A DNA stretch of 64,000 bases from a virus. Below are positions 2,563-46,971 of the stretch, piece after piece. A program made the translations under genes and the position numbers. The number at the start of each line of letters is the position of its first letter. Position 1 is the first letter of the stretch. Below the pieces are notes generated by a model that saw nothing but the letters and a program-made list of their open reading frames with translations, was not told the DNA's origin and did no database searches. The stretch spans positions 1 through 64,000 of IMG/VR virus record IMGVR_UViG_3300036985_002432. The stretch is one strand, 5' to 3'.

Positions 2563-3396
2563 ATGAGTATAGTATTTAAAGCATCAGATCATAGTTATAC
2601 AAGTATAGATGATTCTGAAGATATATCTTGGGTAAGTGTTACTAGTTTAGTATCACATTTTAAAGAACCCTTTGATTCAGCAGGTGTGGCTAAAAAATGT
2701 GCAAAGAATTCAAAGTCTAAATGGTTTGGATTAACACCTGAAGTAATACAGGATTTATGGAAATCTGAGTCTGAACGGGCTATGAATCTTGGTACTTTTT
2801 ACCACAACCAAAGGGAAACTGATTTATGTAATCTTGCATCTATAGAAAAAGAAGGAATACCTCTTCCAGTATATGTGCCTCAAGAAGTTGAAGGTATTAA
2901 ACATGCACCTGATCAAAAGTTAACTGATGGTATATATCCAGAACATATGGTGTATTTAAAATCAGCTAATATATGTGGTCAATCAGATTTAGTTGAAGTA
3001 GTAAATAATAGAGTACACATAATAGATTATAAAACTAATAAAGAAATTAAGTCAGAAGGATTTAAAAATTGGGAAGGTATTACTAAGAAAATGTTATTCC
3101 CTGTTAATCATTTAGATGATTGCAACTTCTCACACTATGCTTTACAGTTAAGTATTTATATGTATATTATATTAAAGCATAATCCTAAACTATCTGTGGG
3201 TACAATGTATCTACATCATATAGTATTTGAATCATCTGATATTGATCAATGGGGTTATCCAGTTACTAAGTATAATGACATTGGAGATCCAATTGTATTA
3301 GAAGTTATTCCAATTGAAGTACCATATTTAAAAGATGAAGTAATTAGTATTGTTAACTGGTTACATGATAATAAACACAAACTTAAAAAGAAATAA
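2563..3396 (+). CDS. PD-(D/E)XK (RecB/Cas4-like) nuclease
   Basis: SVT...G..H, E...CGQSDL, IIDYKT and YALQLSIY motifs. Confidence 0.85.
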   Translation: MSIVFKASDHSYTSIDDSEDISWVSVTSLVSHFKEPFDSAGVAKKCAKNSKSKWFGLTPEVIQDLWKSESERAMNLGTFYHNQRETDLCNLASIEKEGIPLPVYVPQEVEGIKHAPDQKLTDGIYPEHMVYLKSANICGQSDLVEVVNNRVHIIDYKTNKEIKSEGFKNWEGITKKMLFPVNHLDDCNFSHYALQLSIYMYIILKHNPKLSVGTMYLHHIVFESSDIDQWGYPVTKYNDIGDPIVLEVIPIEVPYLKDEVISIVNWLHDNKHKLKKK

Positions 3397-4466: not shown

Positions 4467-6671
4467 ATGGATAATATATACACAGATATACCAACCTGGG
4501 ATAATGGTACTTGGACTACTACATCATTTGAATCAAGAGATGCTTGGAGAGACTATGTATTAACTCTATTTAAGGAACCGGGTCAATATGAATTTGATGA
4601 AGTTACTAATGAAATATTTATTATTGAATCAGCTAAGTTTAGAAAAGATAAAGTATATTGTGTAGCTCCTTTTAAATCTAAAGATTTTATAAACTATTGG
4701 GAAGACCAAAAGACTAAGTGTAGATTAGGAGTATTAATTAAGTCTAAAGATAAAACTTGGTATTTATCAAGAGACTACTACATGTGGTTAAACTTCTTAC
4801 CTATCTTTGATAAAGAACAACAAAAGTTTGACTTTGCTCAAATAAGAGATGCTCAATATCATATGGCTTTATATGAGATACTAGCAGAGTTATTCTATAA
4901 GCATGTTGCTATTTTAAAGAAAAGACAGATAGCTTCCTCATATTTTCATGCGGGTAAACTTATAAATCAATTATGGTTTGAAGCCGGGGTTACTCTAAAG
5001 ATGGGTGCTTCACTTAAAGATTACATTAATGAGAAAGGTACTTGGAAGTTTTTATCAGAATATGCTGCATTCTTAAATGAACATACTGCATGGTATAGAC
5101 CTATGTCTCCAGACAAAGTAATGATGTGGCAACAAAAGATTGAGATTAGAAAAGGAGATAGAAAAGCTGAAGTAGGTTTAAAAGGTACTATACAAGGTAT
5201 GTCTTTTGAAAAAGATCCTACTAATGGTGTAGGGGGACCAGTTAAGTTTTTCTTCCATGAGGAAGCAGGGATTGCTCCTAAAATGAATACAACCTTTGGA
5301 TATATTAAACCTGCACTAAAATCAGGTATGATTACTACAGGATTATTTATTGCTGCAGGATCTGTGGGTGACTTAGATCAATGTGAGCCTCTTAAGAAAA
5401 TGATATTAGATCCTGAAGCAAATGAGATATATGCTGTAGAAACAAATCTAATAGATGATGAAGGTACTATAGGTATGTCAGGATTGTTTATACCAGAACA
5501 ATGGTCAATGCCTCCCTATATAGATGATTATGGTAATAGTTTAGTAGAAGAATCTCTTGTAGCATTAGATGAGTATTTTGAGAAGATAAAGAAAACAATG
5601 GATCCTGAAGATTATCAGTTAGAGATATCTCAGCACCCAAGAAATATAGCAGAAGCATTTAGACATAGAAAAGTATCTAAGTTTCCGTCTCACTTAGTAA
5701 CTGCACAGATAAGAAGAATAGAAGATAAAGAATACGGATATGAGTATCTAGATATCTTTAGAGATGAAACTGGTAAAGTAAAAACAAAGGATAGTAATAA
5801 ACTGCCTATTAGAGAATTTCCAATGACTAAGAAGACTGAAGATAAAACAGGAGTCTTAGTAGTATGGGAAAGACCACAAGGTACTCCTGGGTTTGGACAG
5901 TATTATGCATCAATTGACCCCGTGGCAGAAGGAAAGACAACTACCTCAGACTCACTATGTTCCATATATGTAATGAAAGCTCCTGTAGAAGTAACTAAGG
6001 TTACTGGTGTTGATACTGAAACATATATAGAAGAAGATAAAATAGTAGCAGCATGGTGTGGTAGATTTGATGATATCAAGCAAACACATGAAAGATTAGA
6101 AATGATTATTGAATGGTATAATGCTTGGACAGTAGTAGAGAATAACATCTCTCACTTTATTAATTACATGATATCAAAAAAGAAGCAAAGATACCTAGTA
6201 CAGAAAGATCAAATAATGTTCCTTAAAGATCTTGGTGCTAATAAAAGTGTATTCCAAGATTATGGTTGGAGAAATACTGGAGTACTATTTAAGCATCATT
6301 TACTAAGTTATGTAATAGAATATACTAAAGAAGAATTAGATATTGTAACAAAAGAAGATGGTACTATAGTTAAAACTAAATATGGTATTGAAAGAATTCC
6401 AGATATCATGTTACTCAAAGAAATGCATGCATATGTAGACGGACTCAACGTGGATAGGTTAGTAGCCTTCTCTGCACTAGTTGCTTTTATGAGAATACAA
6501 CAAGCAAATAGAGGATACACTAAGAAAGTAATCATGGATGATGCAGGTAAAAATTTGGAAAAGTCAAAAAATTTGTATAAATTAACTAGTAATCCTTTCC
6601 GTAATTTAGGGAAAGGAATGCGTGTTAATGGAGAGTTATTCAGGAAAAGCGCATTTAAAAATTTTAAATAA
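4467..6671 (+). CDS. terL: Terminase large subunit
   Basis: Walker A-like LKKRQIASS, Walker B FFHEEAG, nuclease motifs SIDPV and DRLVA; precedes the portal. Confidence 0.93.
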   Translation: MDNIYTDIPTWDNGTWTTTSFESRDAWRDYVLTLFKEPGQYEFDEVTNEIFIIESAKFRKDKVYCVAPFKSKDFINYWEDQKTKCRLGVLIKSKDKTWYLSRDYYMWLNFLPIFDKEQQKFDFAQIRDAQYHMALYEILAELFYKHVAILKKRQIASSYFHAGKLINQLWFEAGVTLKMGASLKDYINEKGTWKFLSEYAAFLNEHTAWYRPMSPDKVMMWQQKIEIRKGDRKAEVGLKGTIQGMSFEKDPTNGVGGPVKFFFHEEAGIAPKMNTTFGYIKPALKSGMITTGLFIAAGSVGDLDQCEPLKKMILDPEANEIYAVETNLIDDEGTIGMSGLFIPEQWSMPPYIDDYGNSLVEESLVALDEYFEKIKKTMDPEDYQLEISQHPRNIAEAFRHRKVSKFPSHLVTAQIRRIEDKEYGYEYLDIFRDETGKVKTKDSNKLPIREFPMTKKTEDKTGVLVVWERPQGTPGFGQYYASIDPVAEGKTTTSDSLCSIYVMKAPVEVTKVTGVDTETYIEEDKIVAAWCGRFDDIKQTHERLEMIIEWYNAWTVVENNISHFINYMISKKKQRYLVQKDQIMFLKDLGANKSVFQDYGWRNTGVLFKHHLLSYVIEYTKEELDIVTKEDGTIVKTKYGIERIPDIMLLKEMHAYVDGLNVDRLVAFSALVAFMRIQQANRGYTKKVIMDDAGKNLEKSKNLYKLTSNPFRNLGKGMRVNGELFRKSAFKNFK

Positions 6672-36388: not shown

Positions 36389-36447
36389 ACATTTAAAGTT
36401 TATAGTTTAAACTAAAATTTATTATATTTATAATATAAAGTATACTT

Positions 36448-39400: not shown

Positions 39401-40917
39401 ATAGAGAAAGACAAGAAGAACCTAATACAGAAGAAATGCCACCAATGGTAAATACTGCTGGACCAATGATTGGTGCTGAAGATATGGTACAAGAATATGA
39501 ACAACCTTTTTCAGAAAAAGTTGATTTAATGAATTCTCAATTACAAGTTCCTGATTATTATCCTAATTCAATGGGTGATAGATTAACTCAAGAACAAGTA
39601 AGTCAAAATTTAAATGAAAATTTACAAGGTGTAGGATATATGCCGGAAAATGAATTATTAAATTATGATCATTATGATTCATCAAATGATTTTAAATTAG
39701 ATCCAATTACTAATAAACCAGTAATTAGACAAAGAATTAATAGACGTAATACAAATCCATCTAGTAATAATAGAGTAACTACTAATAATAATAATAATAA
39801 TAATAGAGCAGTTAATAATAAATCTGATGATGCACCTATTGAAAAAGTAAATTCAAATGTATCAAAAACAACTTTAACACCAAAACAACAAAAAGCAGAT
39901 CAAGAATATAAAAGAAAACAAGTAGAACAAGAAGCAAGATCATATATAGTTCCTGAAGGTTCTAATCCTATTTATAATAATTCTGATGAAGTAATTTCAG
40001 ATGTAGCTAAACGACAAGAACAAGCTCAAAAAAGTTTTAGACAAGCTCAAGAAAAGTTTAAAAAAACATATGGTATTGATCAATCTACATTAGAAATGTA
40101 TTTAAATGTAGAAAATACAGATCAAGCTAGATCAATGGAAAAAGCTTACCCACAATTAAAACAAGCAGCTATTAAATATAAACCAGTATATACTAGACAA
40201 GCTCAAGAAAAAGCTGTACAAGATATTTTTAATAGAGCAACAACAATGTTCCAACGTCAATATGGTGGTAATGCACTTCCTAAAGCTCAATTTGGCCCTC
40301 CTGAAGATATACCATTTGGATATTTTAAAGATCCTAATGGAACAGGAGTTTATAGAAATTTAGCCGGTGAAATTTATAAACCTAAAACTAATCTTGAAGG
40401 TAATACAGATAAGTTAATGGGTAATGAATTTACTCAAGAAGGTAATGGATTAACTACAGACAAATCTATGGGTTTTGATTCATCTGGTACTGGTTATAGA
40501 AATGAAGGTTTATTATCTGATGAAGAAAAACAAGCAGGTGCTATGAATAAAGTATCTCAAAAGTTTAAGAATAAACAAGAGTGGAATATAGATGCTAAAG
40601 GTGCATTAGATTTTGGTAATATGGCTGGTAATAAACTAGCTGGATTTTTAGAAAGATCTCAACAAGCTAAACAAAATAGAAACATGGGTAGTAAATATGA
40701 TGCTTCTAATTTGTATGCACAAACAGATGAAAGAGATAGAGGTACCTATGGTCAAGAAGGTGATTTTAAACCAAATGAAACTGGATTTAAAGGTGTAGTT
40801 AAGTATGGTGGCTACATGGAAGAAGGTGGTAGTTATGAAGAAGGTGGTGACACTTGGATGTCTGAAGAACAAATACAACAGTTCTTGGCTGAAGGTGGTG
40901 AATTAGAATTTGTTTAA
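36448..40917 (+). CDS. Large low-complexity putative cargo/ejection protein
   Basis: 1489 aa, Q/E/N-rich, many Phi-x-x-GG motifs. Confidence 0.7.
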   Translation: MKRRVRIYKAGGQHGSYINKTAQYFQEGGMQMQEEVAPEEQPAQEPSDEQVITFIMQTLSQPNGSIEQAKQQLVQANINPARITQLSEAALEYINQQQDIALAEATGNEEDAAAMQLEQDANDRAVAEEEQAAQQAAQNQEMYAQSEESAVDPNENDDSSAAYMRSGGMPNKRAYISNFIKLAKKQEGGDTEESKSDIKTDIPVGGRVEKVSKFHNALKSTANNVALKEQAEKQYEQQMQQMQQMPPQGYAQDGGDTESGVSDFDPYHNLEHYSGAFEHSMPFNALTEAQFGGWGHGRERRAARRMNRMMPQGFNQMANIMGNMGNQMINPFMQQQMNSLAQFMPNQGNLGLANIDVRRTGIFGRPKEYTINFNTASPVTIKDVADTKKQEINNAETTKKEVEETVKEEETNTATTKNAEVEKTADELPEESDITVTTNEVKRNSGKNLSGGNENVNVIGNGTGIMPIPEQQPIQSKGVIQNAINKANQYPSIGTNQNITPITGAKVGPFDFTKIANVGQGMGNVLAQTVQDKAKAEKIAKWKEHLRQEKINALPFLEKQMWYAQHPEDKPKIKPGKKPISTSNNGVIKWQQGGFTDPNSGLYKFMGGGEDMDQANLDYSDSKNISTPYFSNGGLYRFQKEGEVTDENTCLPGMTGCFPQGSAGNKEVVELTEDEKAAKVIADKEAADKLVASKIASDKLAAETARNAYIDEQMKKGNNTNGNIDYENFNYAQQYLQNLGLGANNPFSFISRGNNWNKAIGSPYGTGTLNPISGMIGPNAQVSSINVDKTRMFGPNKGAPKKFTVNYNVPGQPGINASGTPQSYVGSDGQTHWMNNGNQSSKGNQETGRKRPVADMLLRSRVPGLQQLGAKMYPWENNNTSESMSGLHDKGDEAYKEHFGHYPGEEKISTKFIHPTQDQLENETYGPIPGSTPETDSGYQLDAEGMRAIPQYESPYSKLQTRPLERFTNTPELVPMNFPGVGSNYRERQEEPNTEEMPPMVNTAGPMIGAEDMVQEYEQPFSEKVDLMNSQLQVPDYYPNSMGDRLTQEQVSQNLNENLQGVGYMPENELLNYDHYDSSNDFKLDPITNKPVIRQRINRRNTNPSSNNRVTTNNNNNNNRAVNNKSDDAPIEKVNSNVSKTTLTPKQQKADQEYKRKQVEQEARSYIVPEGSNPIYNNSDEVISDVAKRQEQAQKSFRQAQEKFKKTYGIDQSTLEMYLNVENTDQARSMEKAYPQLKQAAIKYKPVYTRQAQEKAVQDIFNRATTMFQRQYGGNALPKAQFGPPEDIPFGYFKDPNGTGVYRNLAGEIYKPKTNLEGNTDKLMGNEFTQEGNGLTTDKSMGFDSSGTGYRNEGLLSDEEKQAGAMNKVSQKFKNKQEWNIDAKGALDFGNMAGNKLAGFLERSQQAKQNRNMGSKYDASNLYAQTDERDRGTYGQEGDFKPNETGFKGVVKYGGYMEEGGSYEEGGDTWMSEEQIQQFLAEGGELEFV
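39784..39804 (+). repeat. (AAT)7 microsatellite encoding poly-Asn
   Basis: aataataataataataataat, in frame. Confidence 0.8.
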
Positions 40918-40927
40918 AAATATAGTT

Positions 40928-43231
40928 ATGTATCATAAAGTAAGAATAACCAAATTACCAGGTAAAGCTAGAGGTGGTAAAATTAATGGTAATAGAATAG
41001 TACCAAATCAATCACTTAGTTTTGGTGGAGCAGATATGAAGTCTGGTCCTAAAAATATTAGTGTAGCTAATACTATCTCAGCAGTACCACGGAATCAAGC
41101 TAATTTAGAGGCTGAAGGAGGGGAAACTGTTTATGGTGACATTAATGGGGATGGTATGGCAGAACACCTTGTGATTAAAGGGCCAAGACATTCATCCGGT
41201 GGTGTTCCATTAAATCTTCCTGATGATACTTTTATCTTTAGTGATACTAGAAGTATGCGTCTTAAAGATCCTAATATGTTAGCACAATTTGGTAAGAGTG
41301 TAAAAAAAGGTCAGTCATATACTCCAGCAGAATTAGCTAAACAATATGATTTAAGTAAGTATAGAAAAATGTTACAAGATCCTGAGTCAGGTGATCTTGA
41401 AAGAAAAACTGCAGAGATAATGATCCGTAACTATACTATGAAGTTAGGAGCATTAGCATTAGCACAAGAAAGTAAAAAAGGCTTTCCTCAAGGTATACCA
41501 GAAGTGGCTAGACCATACATGGATGCTAATGATATTAAAGATGAAGACTTAATACCAAAGTTAGCTCAAGAACAAGAACAACAATCTGCTGAAGAAGAAG
41601 GTGCTGAGCAAGGTGAAGAACAGAATCCAGAAGAAGAAATGATGGAAGCTCCAGAGCAAATGCCTAATGGAGAACAAGTTGCTATGCCTCAAGAAATGCA
41701 ACAACCAATGGCTCAATATGGATATCAAATGACTGAAGATACAATGCCTTTTAATCCAGGTTATATGTATCCAGAATATGAAACATATGAGCAAACACCA
41801 ACTCAATATGCTAGAGGAGGTTCTTTGCCTAAAGCACAGGATGGTGCAGCAACTCCTCCATATGGAATGGATGAAGCATATACTCCTAAAGGTGTAGTAA
41901 GATTAAATCAATATAGAGTTAAATACGGTCTTCCTCCAATTGGTGGTAAAGGTAAACCACTTACTAAAGCAGATATTAAAAAAGCTGCAGGTGAAATGCA
42001 ACAAGTTATTATTGAAAAAAATCCTGAGTTAGTATTACACTATATTCAAAATAAAAGTCATGCACCAAGTAATGCTATTAAGCAAAAATTAGGTGTAAAA
42101 ACAAATGCTGATATTGCTAAAAAATTAAAAGAAGGAAAAATAAAAGCTTCTGATATTACCAGTGCATATAAAGATGACCAATGGTGGTACCGTGCTATTG
42201 ATACTCAATCTAAAGTTTTATCAAAGGCTGACTATGAAGCAAAAATGAAACAAGAAAATGCAATTTTACAAGGTGATAAAAAATATTTTAATGAAGATCC
42301 TAGTAATCCAGAAATGTATACTGAATATACAATGGCTGAAGATGCACCTATTGTAACTGAAGAAGAAAAAGATATTGAAGTTATTGATAGAGGAGATGAT
42401 GCTGAAGAACTTGATATAGAAGACGCACCAAGAAACGTTGATGCTCAATGGATGACACCAGATAAAATAAATTTTTATGGTGCTATGAAAGATAAGTCAA
42501 GAATTAAAAAGTTTATGCCTTGGGCTCCAAGAACAGAGTTAGAAGTACCAACTATGACTTACTTAGATCCTACTAGAGAGTTAGGTCAACAAAGTGAATA
42601 TGCAAACTTAATGGCACAGCAATTAGGTCAGTTTACAGGACCTCAAGCTTTTGCATCTAATATGTCTAGTATTCAAGGAACTGGTGCTGAACAAGCAGCA
42701 AATACTTTATCAAGAATTAATAATGCTAATGTATCTGCATCTAATTCATTTGCACAAAATGCTGCCAATATTAGAAACCAAGAACAAGGTATTAATCAAA
42801 CTTCAGCACAAACATTATATGATCAGAATACAATGGCTGATCAACAATTCTTAAATGCTAAAATTGCAGCAGATCAAAATGTAAGACAAGCATTTGGAAC
42901 TGGTTGGAAAAATGCATCTAACTTAGCTTTAACTAATGGATTGTATTCACAATATGATATAGATCCTAGAACTGGTAACTTATGGTTTGAAGGTGGTAAA
43001 GATATTGTACCTACTCATTCACAAGCAATTTCAGAAAGAGCAATGGAAATACATGATGGTGGAGTAGATGATTGGAAAATTGCATATCAAATGGCTAAAG
43101 ATGAATATAATCAAAATGATGTAGCTGCAGTTGATATGGAAGAAATCATGAATAACACATTAAAAAAAGGTGGTCAAGCAAACATGGGTTATGTTATGGG
43201 GTCAAATGTATTTCCCTTTATGTTTTACTAA
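40928..43231 (+). CDS. Putative cargo/ejection protein
   Basis: ATG at 40928 preferred (MYHKVRI parallels MKRRVRI upstream); EAEGGE and GPRHSSGG motifs; N/Q/A-rich helical C-terminus. Confidence 0.7.
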   Translation: MYHKVRITKLPGKARGGKINGNRIVPNQSLSFGGADMKSGPKNISVANTISAVPRNQANLEAEGGETVYGDINGDGMAEHLVIKGPRHSSGGVPLNLPDDTFIFSDTRSMRLKDPNMLAQFGKSVKKGQSYTPAELAKQYDLSKYRKMLQDPESGDLERKTAEIMIRNYTMKLGALALAQESKKGFPQGIPEVARPYMDANDIKDEDLIPKLAQEQEQQSAEEEGAEQGEEQNPEEEMMEAPEQMPNGEQVAMPQEMQQPMAQYGYQMTEDTMPFNPGYMYPEYETYEQTPTQYARGGSLPKAQDGAATPPYGMDEAYTPKGVVRLNQYRVKYGLPPIGGKGKPLTKADIKKAAGEMQQVIIEKNPELVLHYIQNKSHAPSNAIKQKLGVKTNADIAKKLKEGKIKASDITSAYKDDQWWYRAIDTQSKVLSKADYEAKMKQENAILQGDKKYFNEDPSNPEMYTEYTMAEDAPIVTEEEKDIEVIDRGDDAEELDIEDAPRNVDAQWMTPDKINFYGAMKDKSRIKKFMPWAPRTELEVPTMTYLDPTRELGQQSEYANLMAQQLGQFTGPQAFASNMSSIQGTGAEQAANTLSRINNANVSASNSFAQNAANIRNQEQGINQTSAQTLYDQNTMADQQFLNAKIAADQNVRQAFGTGWKNASNLALTNGLYSQYDIDPRTGNLWFEGGKDIVPTHSQAISERAMEIHDGGVDDWKIAYQMAKDEYNQNDVAAVDMEEIMNNTLKKGGQANMGYVMGSNVFPFMFY

Positions 43232-43234
43232 ACC

Positions 43235-43257
43235 TTATAAGTTTAGTAAACTTATAA
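43235..43257. repeat. Perfect inverted repeat (11-bp arms, 1-nt spacer)
   Basis: TTATAAGTTTA-G-TAAACTTATAA. Confidence 0.75.
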
Positions 43258-43294
43258 AATTTTAATATATTTACAATATAGATAAAGATTAATT

Positions 43295-43930
43295 ATGGCA
43301 ACGTATTTACAGTCAAGTCCCGGAATATATAAAATCACTAGTATGACTAATGGTAAGATATATGTTGGTTGTGCTTCTAATGTAAGAACTAGAATAAATG
43401 GACATCTTTATGATTTAAGAAGAGAAAAACATAAAAACAGTTATTTACAAAAAGCATGGCTTAAGTATGGTGAAGAGAGTTTTGTTTTTGAAATAATTGA
43501 AAAATGTGATATAACTGATTTACATGTTAGAGAACACTATTGGGTTAATAAATTTAATTGTCTAGATAGATCTATTGGTTATAATCTAAAACCAACAGAT
43601 CCTAATGGGTGTTCTATTCATTCTGAAGAAACAAAAGAAAAATTAAGACAAGCTAATAAAGGTAAAAAACCTTCAGCACTATGTATTCAAAAACTTAAAG
43701 AAAGAACTCTTTCTTCAGAACATAAAGAAATAATGAGAAAGTCAAGAGAAGGTATAGATTATACAAAATTACATAGAGAAAAAAGAGGAAAAAAGGTTAT
43801 AGACCAATCAACAGGAATTATATATACTTCATTAGCTGAAGTTTGTGAATTACTTGGAATAACTAAAGGTTCTTTTTCAAGAATACTATTAGGAAAAAGA
43901 AAAAATAAAACAACTTTTAAATACTTATAA
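43295..43930 (+). mobile_element. Free-standing GIY-YIG homing endonuclease (NUMOD3 and NUMOD1/HTH-like domains)
   Basis: GIYKI...IYVG, R..H, RE...GYN; HSEETKEKL; YTSLAEVCELLG. Confidence 0.9.
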
Positions 43931-43932
43931 CC

Positions 43933-46900
43933 ATGGCGACCTATTTAAGTGGTGTGACAGATTATATACCACAGTTTCAACCCTTTCAACCGGATTTGAA
44001 TTTCTATAATAATGTGTTACAAACAAAGCAAACACAATATGATAGTAACTATAAACAATTAAATAAAATTTATGGTAACTATTTTTATGCTGATTTGACA
44101 CATGGAGATAATATTCAAAGAAAAGAAGAACTGTTAAAAAATATTGATGTCAGCCTTAAAAAAGTATCTGGCCTTGATTTATCATTGGAACAAAATGTAA
44201 CTCAAGCAACTCAAGTTTTTAAACCATTTTATGAAGATCAATATCTTATGAAAGATATGGCCTTTACAAAAAACTATACAGCACAAAGAAATAGAGCTGA
44301 AGGTTTAAAGAATTCAACAGATGAAGAAAAACGTGGGATGTATTGGGCTGATGGTGTTGCTGCATTAGATTTTCAAAGAGAAGAATTTAAAGAATCTAAT
44401 ATAGGAGATACACTTAATATGGCAAATGCTAGTTACACTAACTATATTAATGTTCAAGAAAAAGCAATGAAGTTAACTAAAGAAGCTGGTTTATCAATTG
44501 AATCAGTAGACTTTAGTACAGATGGTAAATATATTGTTACAACTAAAAATGGTGAACAGTTAATGGAACCATTAAGTAAATTACTTGAATCTCAATTAGG
44601 ATCAGATCCTGCTATTCAAGAAGTTTATAGAACACAAGCCTATGTAAATAGAAAAACATATGCTGCAGGTAATGCTGCTCAATTTGGTGGTGATAAGAAT
44701 GCTGCTGAAATGAAATATCTTGAGACTAACTTTAACATGCTTAAAGCTCAACAACAAAAAAGATATGAGTCATTACAAGATGATTCAAAATCATATGAAT
44801 CTAGAATTAAAGATATACAAAAACAAATTGATGCTGGTAGTAAAAATCCAGACTTACCTAAATCTTTAGCAAGTTTACAACAGGGTAAACAAATAAATGA
44901 TGATGTACTTGCAAGAATACAAAAAGATAATGACTCTTTAAAGACAGATGAAAAAACTGCTACTACAACTACTGGATTTGTAAATCCTTATGGTGATATT
45001 AAATCATTAAGATGGAAAGTAGATAATGCTATGGCATCAATTTTAATGGAAAAAGATCTTGATGAGTCAGCTCAAATATTTGCTTTTAGAGATGCTAAAC
45101 AAAGTATGGTAGCAGATCCATTTGCAGTAAGTGCACAGAATCATTCATATAGAATGCAAGAAGTTGCTTCTGCTAATGCAAGTAGAGAAAGAGTTGCTGC
45201 TATTAATAATGCAGCTGCTGATAAAAGAGCAAAGAATACATGGGATTTAAGTACAGGTGCATATCATTATGATACAGAAAAATATATTAAAGATGCTAAT
45301 GGTGATGATATATTAAATCCTAATTATAATCAAGTTGTACCAAATGAATCTTATAGTAATACATTTAGTGAGTTTGAAGATAAAGATATTGCAACTGGAG
45401 AGATAAATGTTAAAAATTTAAGTAGAACAATTTCTCAAAGACAAACAGATCAATATGCTGTACCTTATATGCAACAGTCATTAGCTTTATTAGATAAGTT
45501 AGTAACAGAAGGTGTAATGACTAAAGATCAAGCTAACAAAATATTACATACTGAAAAAGATAAAACTATGACAATTGAGAAGTTCAATAAAGGACTTCAA
45601 GGTAATTCAGAATATTTTTTAAGAAATACAGTAGGTACAAATAGTTTAACTTGGATTAATAAAAAATTAAATTGGTGGGTAAAAAATAATAAAAGTGTAA
45701 GTGCTATTACTAAAGATGGTATTCCTGGTTATTCAAAAGCAAATGCTGACTTTAATAATTACATAGGTTATCTTGATGAAGATAAGAAATGGAGAAAAGA
45801 CAGTTCAAAATTAGTTGAAGATAAACTTAAGTCTCAAGGATTAAAAAATGCACAATATTTATATAAACCTGATGGAACATTAAGAAGTGAAGCTGAATTT
45901 ATGAAAGTTCTGCCTAAAGAAAGTAGAGAAGCTATAAATAACAAAGCAAACAAAGCTGCCGTAGATTATCTTACAGGTTTTTCTTTTGATAAAACTTGGA
46001 CAGGTATTAAAGAAATATCTAAAATAGCACTAGCTACAACTACTATGAATACAGCTCCAGCAGAACTTGCTAAGGCACTTGCTAATTTACCGGTTGCTCA
46101 GCGTGAAGCATATAAAAGAAAAATTGAAGAAGCTAAAAAAGAAGCAGGAGGTTATGAAGCTTTACTAAGTGCAGCTGGTAAATCATATTCATCAGCAACT
46201 ATGAAAAAAGTTCCACCAGGTATAAGTAGTATTGGTGAAATGAGTGGAGCTGGAGTATTTACTCCAAGTAGACAATCTATTAATGTAGCTCCATTAGCAT
46301 TTGGTACTAAAGGAAATGGTTACTTTCATGAATTTGCAAGAGACTTTAGAAAAATAGATTTTGCAACATCTGGTATTAGCTTCCATGGAACAAGTAGTAC
46401 TAAAGATACTGATGCAGGTAAAGCAATGATAAATGCTATGATTTCAGCAATGAATGATACTAAAAGTAAATTTAAACCCTTTAAAATGAGTAGTCAAGCA
46501 ATTGCTGGAGGATCAAGTAATAAAGGTGCAATGATATTACATCCTGATGCCGAATGGTTACAAAATTATATGAAAAGTGAAAAAGGTACAGCTGGACTTA
46601 TAACTGCAGATGATTATAATGCCATATTAACAAATGGTATTAGTGTTGTAAGTGATTCAAAAAACTGGACAAATGGTTTATATACTTCATCTTATTTAGA
46701 TCCACTTCAATCTGTTGTAGAATCTAATCCTAATGGTTATGAATGGAATGATCCTTATGGTAACTATAATATGAAGATTAAAAAGAATACAATGGGCACT
46801 GGTGATTATAATATTCAAAGAACTTATAGATTATTAAATCAAGAAACAGGACAATATGAAGAAGTTTCAACTTTAAATAATACTAGTGTAATTGGTAATA

Positions 46901-46971
46901 ATTTATCTAATGTTCAAAGAGGTATGTTTAATGAATCAGAAGAAGTAAGAACATATAATCAAGGATACTAA
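43933..46971 (+). CDS. Large putative ejection/cargo protein
   Basis: 1012 aa helical; first of three giant genes ending with the virion RNA polymerase, as in crAss-like phages. Confidence 0.65.
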   Translation: MATYLSGVTDYIPQFQPFQPDLNFYNNVLQTKQTQYDSNYKQLNKIYGNYFYADLTHGDNIQRKEELLKNIDVSLKKVSGLDLSLEQNVTQATQVFKPFYEDQYLMKDMAFTKNYTAQRNRAEGLKNSTDEEKRGMYWADGVAALDFQREEFKESNIGDTLNMANASYTNYINVQEKAMKLTKEAGLSIESVDFSTDGKYIVTTKNGEQLMEPLSKLLESQLGSDPAIQEVYRTQAYVNRKTYAAGNAAQFGGDKNAAEMKYLETNFNMLKAQQQKRYESLQDDSKSYESRIKDIQKQIDAGSKNPDLPKSLASLQQGKQINDDVLARIQKDNDSLKTDEKTATTTTGFVNPYGDIKSLRWKVDNAMASILMEKDLDESAQIFAFRDAKQSMVADPFAVSAQNHSYRMQEVASANASRERVAAINNAAADKRAKNTWDLSTGAYHYDTEKYIKDANGDDILNPNYNQVVPNESYSNTFSEFEDKDIATGEINVKNLSRTISQRQTDQYAVPYMQQSLALLDKLVTEGVMTKDQANKILHTEKDKTMTIEKFNKGLQGNSEYFLRNTVGTNSLTWINKKLNWWVKNNKSVSAITKDGIPGYSKANADFNNYIGYLDEDKKWRKDSSKLVEDKLKSQGLKNAQYLYKPDGTLRSEAEFMKVLPKESREAINNKANKAAVDYLTGFSFDKTWTGIKEISKIALATTTMNTAPAELAKALANLPVAQREAYKRKIEEAKKEAGGYEALLSAAGKSYSSATMKKVPPGISSIGEMSGAGVFTPSRQSINVAPLAFGTKGNGYFHEFARDFRKIDFATSGISFHGTSSTKDTDAGKAMINAMISAMNDTKSKFKPFKMSSQAIAGGSSNKGAMILHPDAEWLQNYMKSEKGTAGLITADDYNAILTNGISVVSDSKNWTNGLYTSSYLDPLQSVVESNPNGYEWNDPYGNYNMKIKKNTMGTGDYNIQRTYRLLNQETGQYEEVSTLNNTSVIGNNLSNVQRGMFNESEEVRTYNQGY

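Follow-up and report, generated by a model that had tools for sequence, protein, structure and literature searches.

A GIY-YIG endonuclease gene that appears to have captured the start of a conserved gene in crAss-like phages

Homing endonuclease genes (HEGs) are assumed to enter a coding region without harm only as part of an intron or intein, and otherwise to lie between genes. A locus in a crAss-like phage stretch from IMG/VR (positions 1 to 64,000 of record IMGVR_UViG_3300036985_002432; this whole stretch of 64,000 nucleotides (nt), with a G+C content of 31%, is referred to as the window) raises the question of how an endonuclease gene came to begin with the same residues as the gene that follows it. 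Here, an open reading frame (ORF) for a GIY-YIG endonuclease starting MATYLQ is followed by the gene for a protein of 1012 amino acids (aa) starting MATYLSGVTDY, referred to as the target gene. A first-pass annotation made from the sequence alone had proposed that the endonuclease gene inserted about six codons into the target gene, took over its expression signals and left it with a recoded start. We compared the locus with its relatives, and conclude that the best explanation as a whole, to which we assign a probability of about 0.8, is a free-standing GIY-YIG cassette that inserted exactly after codon 6, captured the start of the target gene, supplies it with a spare start and spreads by homing.

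A cassette inserted after codon 6 of the target gene

Relatives of the window phage were compared as distinct alleles, i.e. 51 empty alleles, 17 alleles occupied by a GIY-YIG gene and three occupied by an HNH endonuclease gene. In the window itself, the ORF starts and the spacing reported in the first-pass annotation agree with the sequence, and the 2 nt between the two ORFs are CC (Table 1). The annotation had predicted that relatives without the HEG would have the same leader directly followed by MATYLQGVTDY. This arrangement was found in the 51 distinct empty alleles: the leader is the same in the empty and the occupied states, and empty alleles continue after it with ATGGCAACGTAT(C/T)TACAAGG..., which encodes MATYLQGVTDY. 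We also looked for empty alleles with a different leader or start and found none. Moreover, in an unbiased scan of 80 loci of target homologs in IMG/VR, 66 loci were empty (upstream gene, leader of 60-66 nt, target ATG), 11 carried a GIY-YIG ORF of 211-216 aa and three carried an HNH_3 + AP2 endonuclease gene. Partial HEG remnants at this site were not detected at any of these 80 loci. In all relatives, the homologous upstream genes end 60-66 nt before the ATG that follows the leader.

The borders of the insertion were defined by two comparisons. Between the empty allele L139 and the occupied allele L015, a gap of 638 nt is present; the left flank has three differences in 98 nt, while the restart has eight differences in nt 1-24 and one in nt 25-120. 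For diverged pairs of empty and occupied alleles such anchored comparisons were used, a global MAFFT alignment having misplaced the gap. Similarly, an independent public viral metagenome (X5) contains a contig of 33.8 kb (depth 110) in which position 43311 is joined to position 43950, so that exactly 638 nt are skipped; this contig has no differences from the window in 43257-43311 and seven in the 551 nt downstream. The same run contains an HEG-bearing contig at depth 2.8 that is 94% identical to the window and, because of this level of identity, may come from a relative other than the window phage. The insertion, placed about six codons into the gene by the first-pass annotation, therefore lies exactly after codon 6. 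The 638-nt insert is filled completely by the HEG ORF from codon 7, the 2-nt spacer and an 18-nt restart. The target gene is read whole from the restart, i.e. as 1012 aa that are collinear with the proteins of empty alleles, with no gap or bypass. Neither Hint domains nor a group I or group II ribozyme flanking the HEG was found in the insert, which the ORF fills, or in an Rfam search of 42800-44500, which returned no family apart from one noise match; hence, the insertion is intron-less, as had been proposed.

Three lines of evidence distinguish the native copy of the first six codons from the copy that moves. First, the 5' copy of the occupied allele L125 matches the start of its empty sister L121 at 18/18 nt, including a lineage-specific GCT, and the restart of L125 (ATGAGTACT...) is of the cassette type. 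Second, the distance to the starts of empty alleles is 3.0/18 nt for 5' copies and 5.7/18 nt for restarts, compared with 3.4/18 nt among empty alleles. Third, the target gene in the window is a mosaic: its codons 1-20 are 87% identical to those of L015, which bears the closest HEG, and from the interval 11-30 onward it is closest to L095 (mostly 75-97% identical; 45-82% for L015). The tract of co-conversion is short: cassette-type sequence covers about 24 nt of the target gene, up to approximately codon 8 (43956), and no more than 1 nt on the left side of the insert. From the near-isogenic pairs, the copy distances and the mosaic, the mobile unit is HEG codon 7 to stop, the spacer and the respelled codons 1-8. 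In total, we conclude that the 5' copy is the recipient's own start, and that the diverged restart, which had been read as a recoded start that rebuilds the gene, travels with the HEG as one cassette.

These data also bear on the trivial explanation that the two adjacent N termini are similar by chance or through an artefact of annotation. In the window alone, the match is short at five residues; by our own estimate, about 1e-5 of gene pairs should share four residues after Met. However, the same duplication is present in 17 distinct alleles with three junction types, a leader shared with empty alleles and an exact 638-nt indel, and this explanation is hardly credible and was rejected.

The endonuclease and its horizontal spread

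The HEG product matches Pfam PF01541 (2.3e-8, 34.7 bits, cut-off 22.6) and PHROG 314 'homing endonuclease' (1.4e-35, covering residues 9-210). Its catalytic domain comprises residues 9-98, which align at 9e-8 to residues 3-91 of the catalytic domain of I-TevI. In I-TevI, only two residues precede the GIY strand. Residues 1-8 of the HEG product are therefore an N-terminal extension, the first six residues of which are MATYLQ; moreover, the 5' copy holds the only start codon of the HEG upstream of the GIY motif. The C-terminal part is putatively a NUMOD3/HTH-like DNA-binding module, with sub-threshold matches to NUMOD3 (19.8 bits, cut-off 20.4) and the I-HmuI NUMOD-like domain (18.2 bits, cut-off 27). 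An alignment of 14 HEG orthologs shows no variation at the GIY, YxG, R, H, E and N positions, and purifying selection on these orthologs is evident from dN/dS values of 0.16-0.46. Every HEG copy that is not cut by a contig end is intact and encodes 211-216 aa.

Within the family, one catalytic half is combined with two exchangeable C-terminal, putatively DNA-binding halves (residues about 125-211), each of which has its own junction and restart spelling. Type A proteins end in TTFKY(L/I) and have the junction TAA-NN-ATG, and the HEG in the window (...TTFKYL) is of this type; type B proteins end in NLIYL and have the junction TAATG. L105 (2348-2998) has a recombinant HEG, in which a type-B middle is joined to a type-A end.

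A search for the HEG identified 23 loci with orthologs (59-88% identical), all at this site. Their products start with MATY(L/I)Q except for two that start with MSTYIQ and one that starts with MATFLQ. At every one of these loci that extends to the 3' end of the HEG, and thus in all 17 distinct GIY-occupied alleles, the restart lies at an offset of +2, -1 (TAATG) or -4 (ATGA) from the HEG stop, and in the three HNH-occupied alleles the offset is +2. By contrast, distant GIY-YIG homologs (at most 46% identical) at other loci start with MKSGIY, MTCGIY, MKSNEVY and similar sequences; we looked among them for starts of the MATYL type, which the first-pass annotation had named as a finding that would speak against capture, and there were none. 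Thus, the capture of the start is specific to this site.

HEG identity and flank identity do not follow each other. Between the window and L015, the HEG is 88% identical, the target 59% and the upstream gene 26%; between the window and L095, the corresponding values are 64%, 83% and 46%. The HEG of L034 is 57-76% identical to those of other occupied alleles vs 23-31% for its target. In this allele (HEG at 442-1083, target from 1083), the cassette is of type B and only the first 10 target codons (MSTYLQGVTD) resemble those of the others, which suggests transfer over a wide phylogenetic gap. In a tree of the target built from residues 11-400, i.e. with the duplicated codons excluded, the GIY state requires at least 11 changes, nine of which are forced by well-supported branches, and the HNH state requires three. 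One tight trio in this tree holds three states, L107 being empty, L120 GIY-occupied and L149 HNH-occupied.

The HNH_3 + AP2 endonuclease (164-165 aa) is unrelated to the GIY-YIG endonuclease and is present at the same site in three lineages (L003/L097, 5501-5998; L143, 2504-2998; L149, 2504-2998). Its gene captures the leader up to and including the ATG, and in two alleles out of three also the GCAA that follows, and ends in TAA-NN-ATG. Hence, the two nuclease families show convergence in both insertion site and junction geometry.

We considered that the HEG might be an old vertical resident that was lost many times and no longer moves. The GIY state is somewhat clustered on the target tree (11 changes vs 14.5 with shuffled labels), and the HEG subtypes partly track phage clades. 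However, HEG identity is far above flank identity in some pairs and below it in others, the likeness to the nearest HEG relative does not reach beyond the first ~24 nt of the target, the 638-nt insert alone separates near-identical phages, and L034 carries the cassette in a target that is highly diverged from those of the other occupied alleles. Vertical residence is therefore very improbable, and we conclude that the HEG is polymorphic for presence or absence in near-isogenic phages and has spread horizontally.

One well-supported clade of 11 alleles is free of the HEG, and yet cassette-like starts are in the majority in it (ATGAGT.., ATGTCA.., ATGGCG.., Ser at codon 6, CAGGGC). Such starts are found in L102, L123, L138, L111, L124 and L152, with the target start at 3001, and in L012, with the target start at 6001. 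They may be what precise loss of the HEG has left behind, or they may be resistance alleles that HEG pressure has favoured.

Respelling of the restart and the proposed homing route

The first-pass annotation had described the synonymous changes in the restart as changes to rare CG-containing codons. Both codons are indeed rare in the window (GCG accounts for 0.5% of Ala codons and ACC for 2% of Thr codons); of the two, however, CG is present in GCG alone, and the native ACG, itself a CG codon, is also rare (1% of Thr codons). We compared codon usage at each position between the 51 empty alleles and the 17 GIY restarts, using Fisher's test without phylogenetic correction. GCA at codon 2 is present in 38/51 empty alleles vs 0/17 restarts, in which it is replaced by AGT (8), GCT (5), GCG (3) or GCC (1) (Fisher 3e-8); ACG at codon 3 in 26/51 vs 1/17; CAA at codon 6 in 35/51 vs 3/17; and GGA at codon 7 in 19/51 vs 0/17. 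As a result, nt 6 is other than A in 17/17 GIY restarts by way of four different codons, while GCA makes up 50% of Ala codons in the window. In the HNH restarts, codons 1-6 are native-like but codon 7 is changed from Gly to Asn (G7N, AAT) in 3/3 alleles vs 0/51 empty alleles. In every occupied allele, the two copies differ at 4-8/18 nt.

At nt 5-9, the start can also contain the sequence CNNNG, which we take to be the I-TevI-type cleavage motif. Of the empty alleles, 26/51 have it, as do 10/17 of the 5' copies and 1/17 of the restarts; it is no more than a suggestive lead, because half of the empty alleles are without it. A bipartite, I-TevI-like reading of the site is attractive: the 5' copy would retain the upstream part of the site and lose the downstream part to HEG sequence, and the restart would keep the downstream part but have its upstream part respelled. 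A separate feature of this region is that the first ~20 codons of the target (43933-44010) keep codons that are rare in the genome (ACG, CAG, CCG, CCC, GTG) across many lineages, which may be due to repeated gene conversion by homing, to a signal at the nucleotide level or to donors with a higher G+C content.

The observations that several codons avoid one base at nt 6, and that an unrelated nuclease is associated with a change at another position, fit immunity better than mere divergence of a repeat. Thus, the respelling probably shields the rebuilt half-site from the element's own nuclease. A second probable effect is that the two 18-nt copies recombine less often, and that the HEG is less often deleted in this way.

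Altogether, we suggest the following route. The mobile unit consists of HEG codon 7 to stop, a spacer of 0-2 nt and the respelled first 6-8 codons of the target. Upon insertion, the resident leader, ATG and six codons become the start of the HEG, adding a six-residue extension in front of the I-TevI-like catalytic domain, and the target gene restarts from the cassette-borne copy; ribosomes that end at the HEG stop would reinitiate 2 nt downstream. In mixed infections, the enzyme would cut HEG-less alleles in or near the start region, as the distribution of the HEG suggests, and repair would copy the cassette and, of the target sequence next to it, no more than about 24 nt. Finally, the respelling would keep the rebuilt half-site uncut and limit recombination between the two 18-nt copies.

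Several points weigh against parts of this explanation. The restart rides with the cassette, so that there were few independent events and the codon counts rest on few ancestral cassettes, i.e. types A and B and their variants. Restart-like starts (S2, S6, GCG) are also present in some empty alleles. In the case of the phage T4 endonuclease MobA, a preprint attributes protection to translational bypass and not to polymorphisms, the polymorphisms of the replacement piece alone having failed to block nicking (bioRxiv 10.1101/2022.08.31.505936, citing Bonocora 2011); hence, respelling need not give immunity. Moreover, two RNA runs have coverage of the flanks only, in the form of the empty allele, and are uninformative on the HEG. 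Lastly, that the target is essential and has a role in the virion is a reasonable guess from its conservation and position.

The first three of these points lend themselves to an alternative in which the respelled restart does not serve immunity, and is either repeat divergence that blocks recombinational loss of the HEG or donor sequence that hitch-hiked from the first cassette. We regard this alternative as possible, if on the doubtful side. It would account for the divergence between the copies in every occupied allele, and the restart is clearly donor sequence borne by the cassette. On the other hand, the changes lie at particular positions and are not scattered (nt 6 in 17/17 restarts, with ACG at codon 3 nearly always lost), the HNH cassette alters a different position (G7N, 3/3), as expected if the two nucleases read different bases, and immunity is logically needed because the duplication rebuilds nearly the whole target site downstream of the HEG.

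Expression signals, known systems and the target gene

The features of the locus are listed in Table 1. The leader that now precedes the HEG contains a palindrome and a TTTA-N20-TATATTTA element; the only other copy of this element in plus-strand gaps of the virion block lies before the gene for a 1489-aa protein. The element resembles what we take to be the promoter consensus of Bacteroidota, with G-to-A changes. In a looser form (TTTA-N19-21-TAnnTTTA), the pattern occurs 18 times vs 8.2 expected, and only two of these occurrences are in plus-strand gaps of the virion block. A palindrome, AAGTTT..AAACTT, is common to both intergenic gaps of the virion block, and L010 has the compensatory variant ATGTTT..AAACAT. 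The palindrome together with the TTTA-N20-TATATTTA element is a candidate phage promoter or operator, and the palindrome may overlap a weak terminator hairpin followed by AAAATTTT. The leader may act as a promoter. We also considered whether the leader is a repeated element and rejected this, as an exact 28-mer from it (at most three mismatches allowed) occurs only once.

Table 1. Features of the locus in window coordinates
Feature	Position	Strand	Remarks
Upstream gene, 773 aa, putative cargo-type protein	40910..43231	+	ORF list; stop 43229-43231 is the left edge of the leader
Leader, conserved, AT-rich, 63 nt, now preceding the HEG	43232..43294	+	Same leader before target ATG (empty) and before HEG ATG (occupied)
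10-bp palindrome in leader	43235-43257	+	Hairpin appears in RNA fold
TTTA-N20-TATATTTA promoter-like element in leader	43242-43273	+	Pattern search
Second TTTA-N20-TATATTTA copy, before 1489-aa gene	36399-36430	+	Only other copy in plus-strand gaps of virion block
5' copy: native codons 1-6 of target (ATGGCAACGTATTTACAG), now HEG codons 1-6	43295..43312	+	Identical to near-isogenic empty X5 contig through 43311
GIY-YIG homing endonuclease ORF, intact, 211 aa	43295..43930	+	Starts ATG GCA ACG TAT TTA CAG (MATYLQ); TAA at 43928-43930
Insert relative to empty alleles, 638 nt: HEG codon 7 to stop, CC spacer, spare codons 1-6	43313..43950	+	X5 contig; L139/L015 gap
Stop/start junction TAA-CC-ATG, 2-nt spacer	43928..43935	+	Presumed termination-reinitiation coupling site
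3' copy: respelled, cassette-borne restart (ATGGCGACCTATTTAAGTGGTGTG); Q6S and synonymous changes	43933..43956	+	5/18 nt differ from 5' copy
Target gene, 1012 aa, restarts 2 nt past HEG stop	43933..46971	+	ATG GCG ACC TAT TTA AGT GGT GTG; protein MATYLSGVTDY

Between the HEG and the target gene, no sigma-70 promoter or terminator was detected above chance, and no RNA structure that would hide the restart codon was found (fold z-scores 0.3-1.9). Because the stop/start distances are +2, -1 or -4 everywhere, and +2 with the HNH gene, and signals between the genes are absent, termination-reinitiation is the most economical explanation, and the target is probably translated by reinitiation after the HEG stop.

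If so, the cassette could be a natural home-and-rescue drive that is hard to lose, in that it takes the sole initiation site and forces translation of a needed gene by reinitiation after the HEG stop. In that case, nonsense and frameshift mutations in the HEG would be polar on the target, removal would be by precise excision only, and the element would have escaped the usual decay phase of HEGs. The intactness of all copies not cut by a contig end, the lack of remnants at the 80 loci and the HEG-free clade with cassette-like starts would fit this idea, which we put forward tentatively and consider rather unlikely.

Purifying selection on the HEG and the lack of decayed copies would also be in accordance with a nuclease that is kept mainly for interference competition, i.e. 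for cutting the start of an indispensable gene in co-infecting relatives, with homing as a side effect. The virion block has only two promoter-like elements, and the HEG follows one of them; moreover, a jumbo-phage intron endonuclease provides a precedent (PMC11620839). However, most relatives (66/80 loci in the unbiased scan) are without any HEG at the site. This possibility is compatible with a homing cassette as proposed above but, as an account of why the nuclease is kept, is an outside chance.

Among known systems, the closest match is the fungal mitochondrial mORF 'gene hybrids', which have been described in atp6 of Allomyces macrogynus and in atp6, atp9, cox2 and nad3 of Glomus (PMC3630166). 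As at the locus described here, a free-standing HEG lies inside a conserved gene near one end, a diverged duplicate from a foreign donor keeps the gene whole, and the HEG can be in frame (PMC3630166). Unlike here, all of the fungal hybrids concern 3' ends and the native end is left downstream as an unexpressed fossil (PMC3630166); in the phage gene the 5' end is affected, the native piece and the leader are reused as the HEG start, and the host gene restarts behind the HEG.

T4 MobA in gene 60 is similar in that a phage HEG cassette lies in a gene, in that case an essential one, with a diverged 'homR' replacement, and in that one site is used in several phage clades with near-identical empty relatives and with the endonuclease swapped for other families in some lineages (bioRxiv 10.1101/2022.08.31.505936). 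The same source describes a topoisomerase gene that is split into two polypeptides and requires added tails and a 50-nt translational bypass; by contrast, the locus studied here has no split and no bypass, i.e. the duplication comprises six codons and the whole gene is read again from the restart, which is putatively coupled.

The intronless homing endonucleases SegF, SegG and MobE of T4 are likewise free-standing GIY-YIG or HNH proteins with no intron or intein, a patchy distribution, co-conversion and stop/start overlaps that suggest coupling (PMC2988022). Their genes, however, lie between genes, usually downstream of a host gene and coupled to it, a coupling that limits HEG expression (mobE, UAAUGA) (PMC2988022), whereas here the HEG takes the primary initiation and the host gene would be the downstream, coupled partner. 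Duplication of gene ends is not mentioned in that review of T4 homing (PMC2988022). I-TevI of the T4 td intron (PDB 1mk0/1ln0) shares a homologous catalytic domain and, putatively, a linker and a small C-terminal DNA-binding part, but is intron-borne, while the HEG described here has a captured extension of 6-8 residues and no intron. Finally, synthetic HomeR drives combine a nuclease drive in an essential gene with a recoded rescue (PMC7968924). The likeness is one of design logic only: HomeR is an engineered CRISPR system in insects with a cleavage-resistant rescue (PMC7968924) and has no evolutionary relation to the phage locus, the natural restart of which is putatively resistant.

In the limited collection of literature searched, we found no description of a HEG that captures a start at the 5' end of a phage gene. 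The new elements here are the use of the 5' end, the reuse of the native piece and the leader, a host gene that is unsplit with a putatively coupled restart, and the convergence of two nuclease families. The locus thus points to a third route by which a HEG can enter a coding region, i.e. at its extreme 5' end, with reuse of the gene's expression signals and a spare start, in a layout that parallels engineered rescue-type gene drives. Relative to T4, coupling would be reversed, in that the host gene would depend on the parasite's reading frame. Moreover, nucleases of two unrelated families use the site as a hot spot, and public metagenomes contain near-isogenic alleles in the empty, GIY and HNH states; these alleles constitute a natural experiment through which target choice, immunity by respelling and the turnover of HEGs can be approached in crAss-like phages, most of which are uncultured. 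For annotation, a short N-terminal match between adjacent genes can mark a mobile element, and pipelines may misplace the start of the target or call the HEG an ordinary gene.

Homologs of the target gene are present at the same position in 174 IMG/VR stretches, and the target is a conserved core gene of this crAss-like phage group. Conservation of the protein is highest over its first 25 residues, which makes this region a good target for a HEG. No match to Pfam, PHROG or PDB was obtained for the target (PDB by sequence and by profile; Pfam also with 19 homologs) or for the upstream 773-aa protein, and tblastn of the target against 50,697 named phage records gave no match. An assignment of the target as crAss cargo protein 2, to which a language-model neighbour pointed (0.90, 168 shared features), was not confirmed, as PF25712 gave no match at E<=10 genome-wide or in the 19 homologs. 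The target gene lies just upstream of genes for giant RNA-polymerase-associated proteins of 1933 and >3700 aa, and the gene order fits the block of cargo and RNA-polymerase-associated proteins of crAss001, a phage for which the published atlas resolves little of the cargo proteins (PMC10172136).

Outside the window, the genome contains a second GIY-YIG gene (G000:C1, about 79.6-81.6 kb; L014, 1024-3007) on the minus strand, which encodes 248 aa with a NUMOD1 domain. Over the catalytic half, its product is 33% identical to the first GIY-YIG protein, and its start differs from MATYL. It ends in ...GKVIKLEL, exactly like the product of the 398-aa gene just upstream, i.e. the duplication is a mirror image at the 3' end. 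This second case in the same genome suggests that HEG cassettes that duplicate gene ends recur in this phage group.

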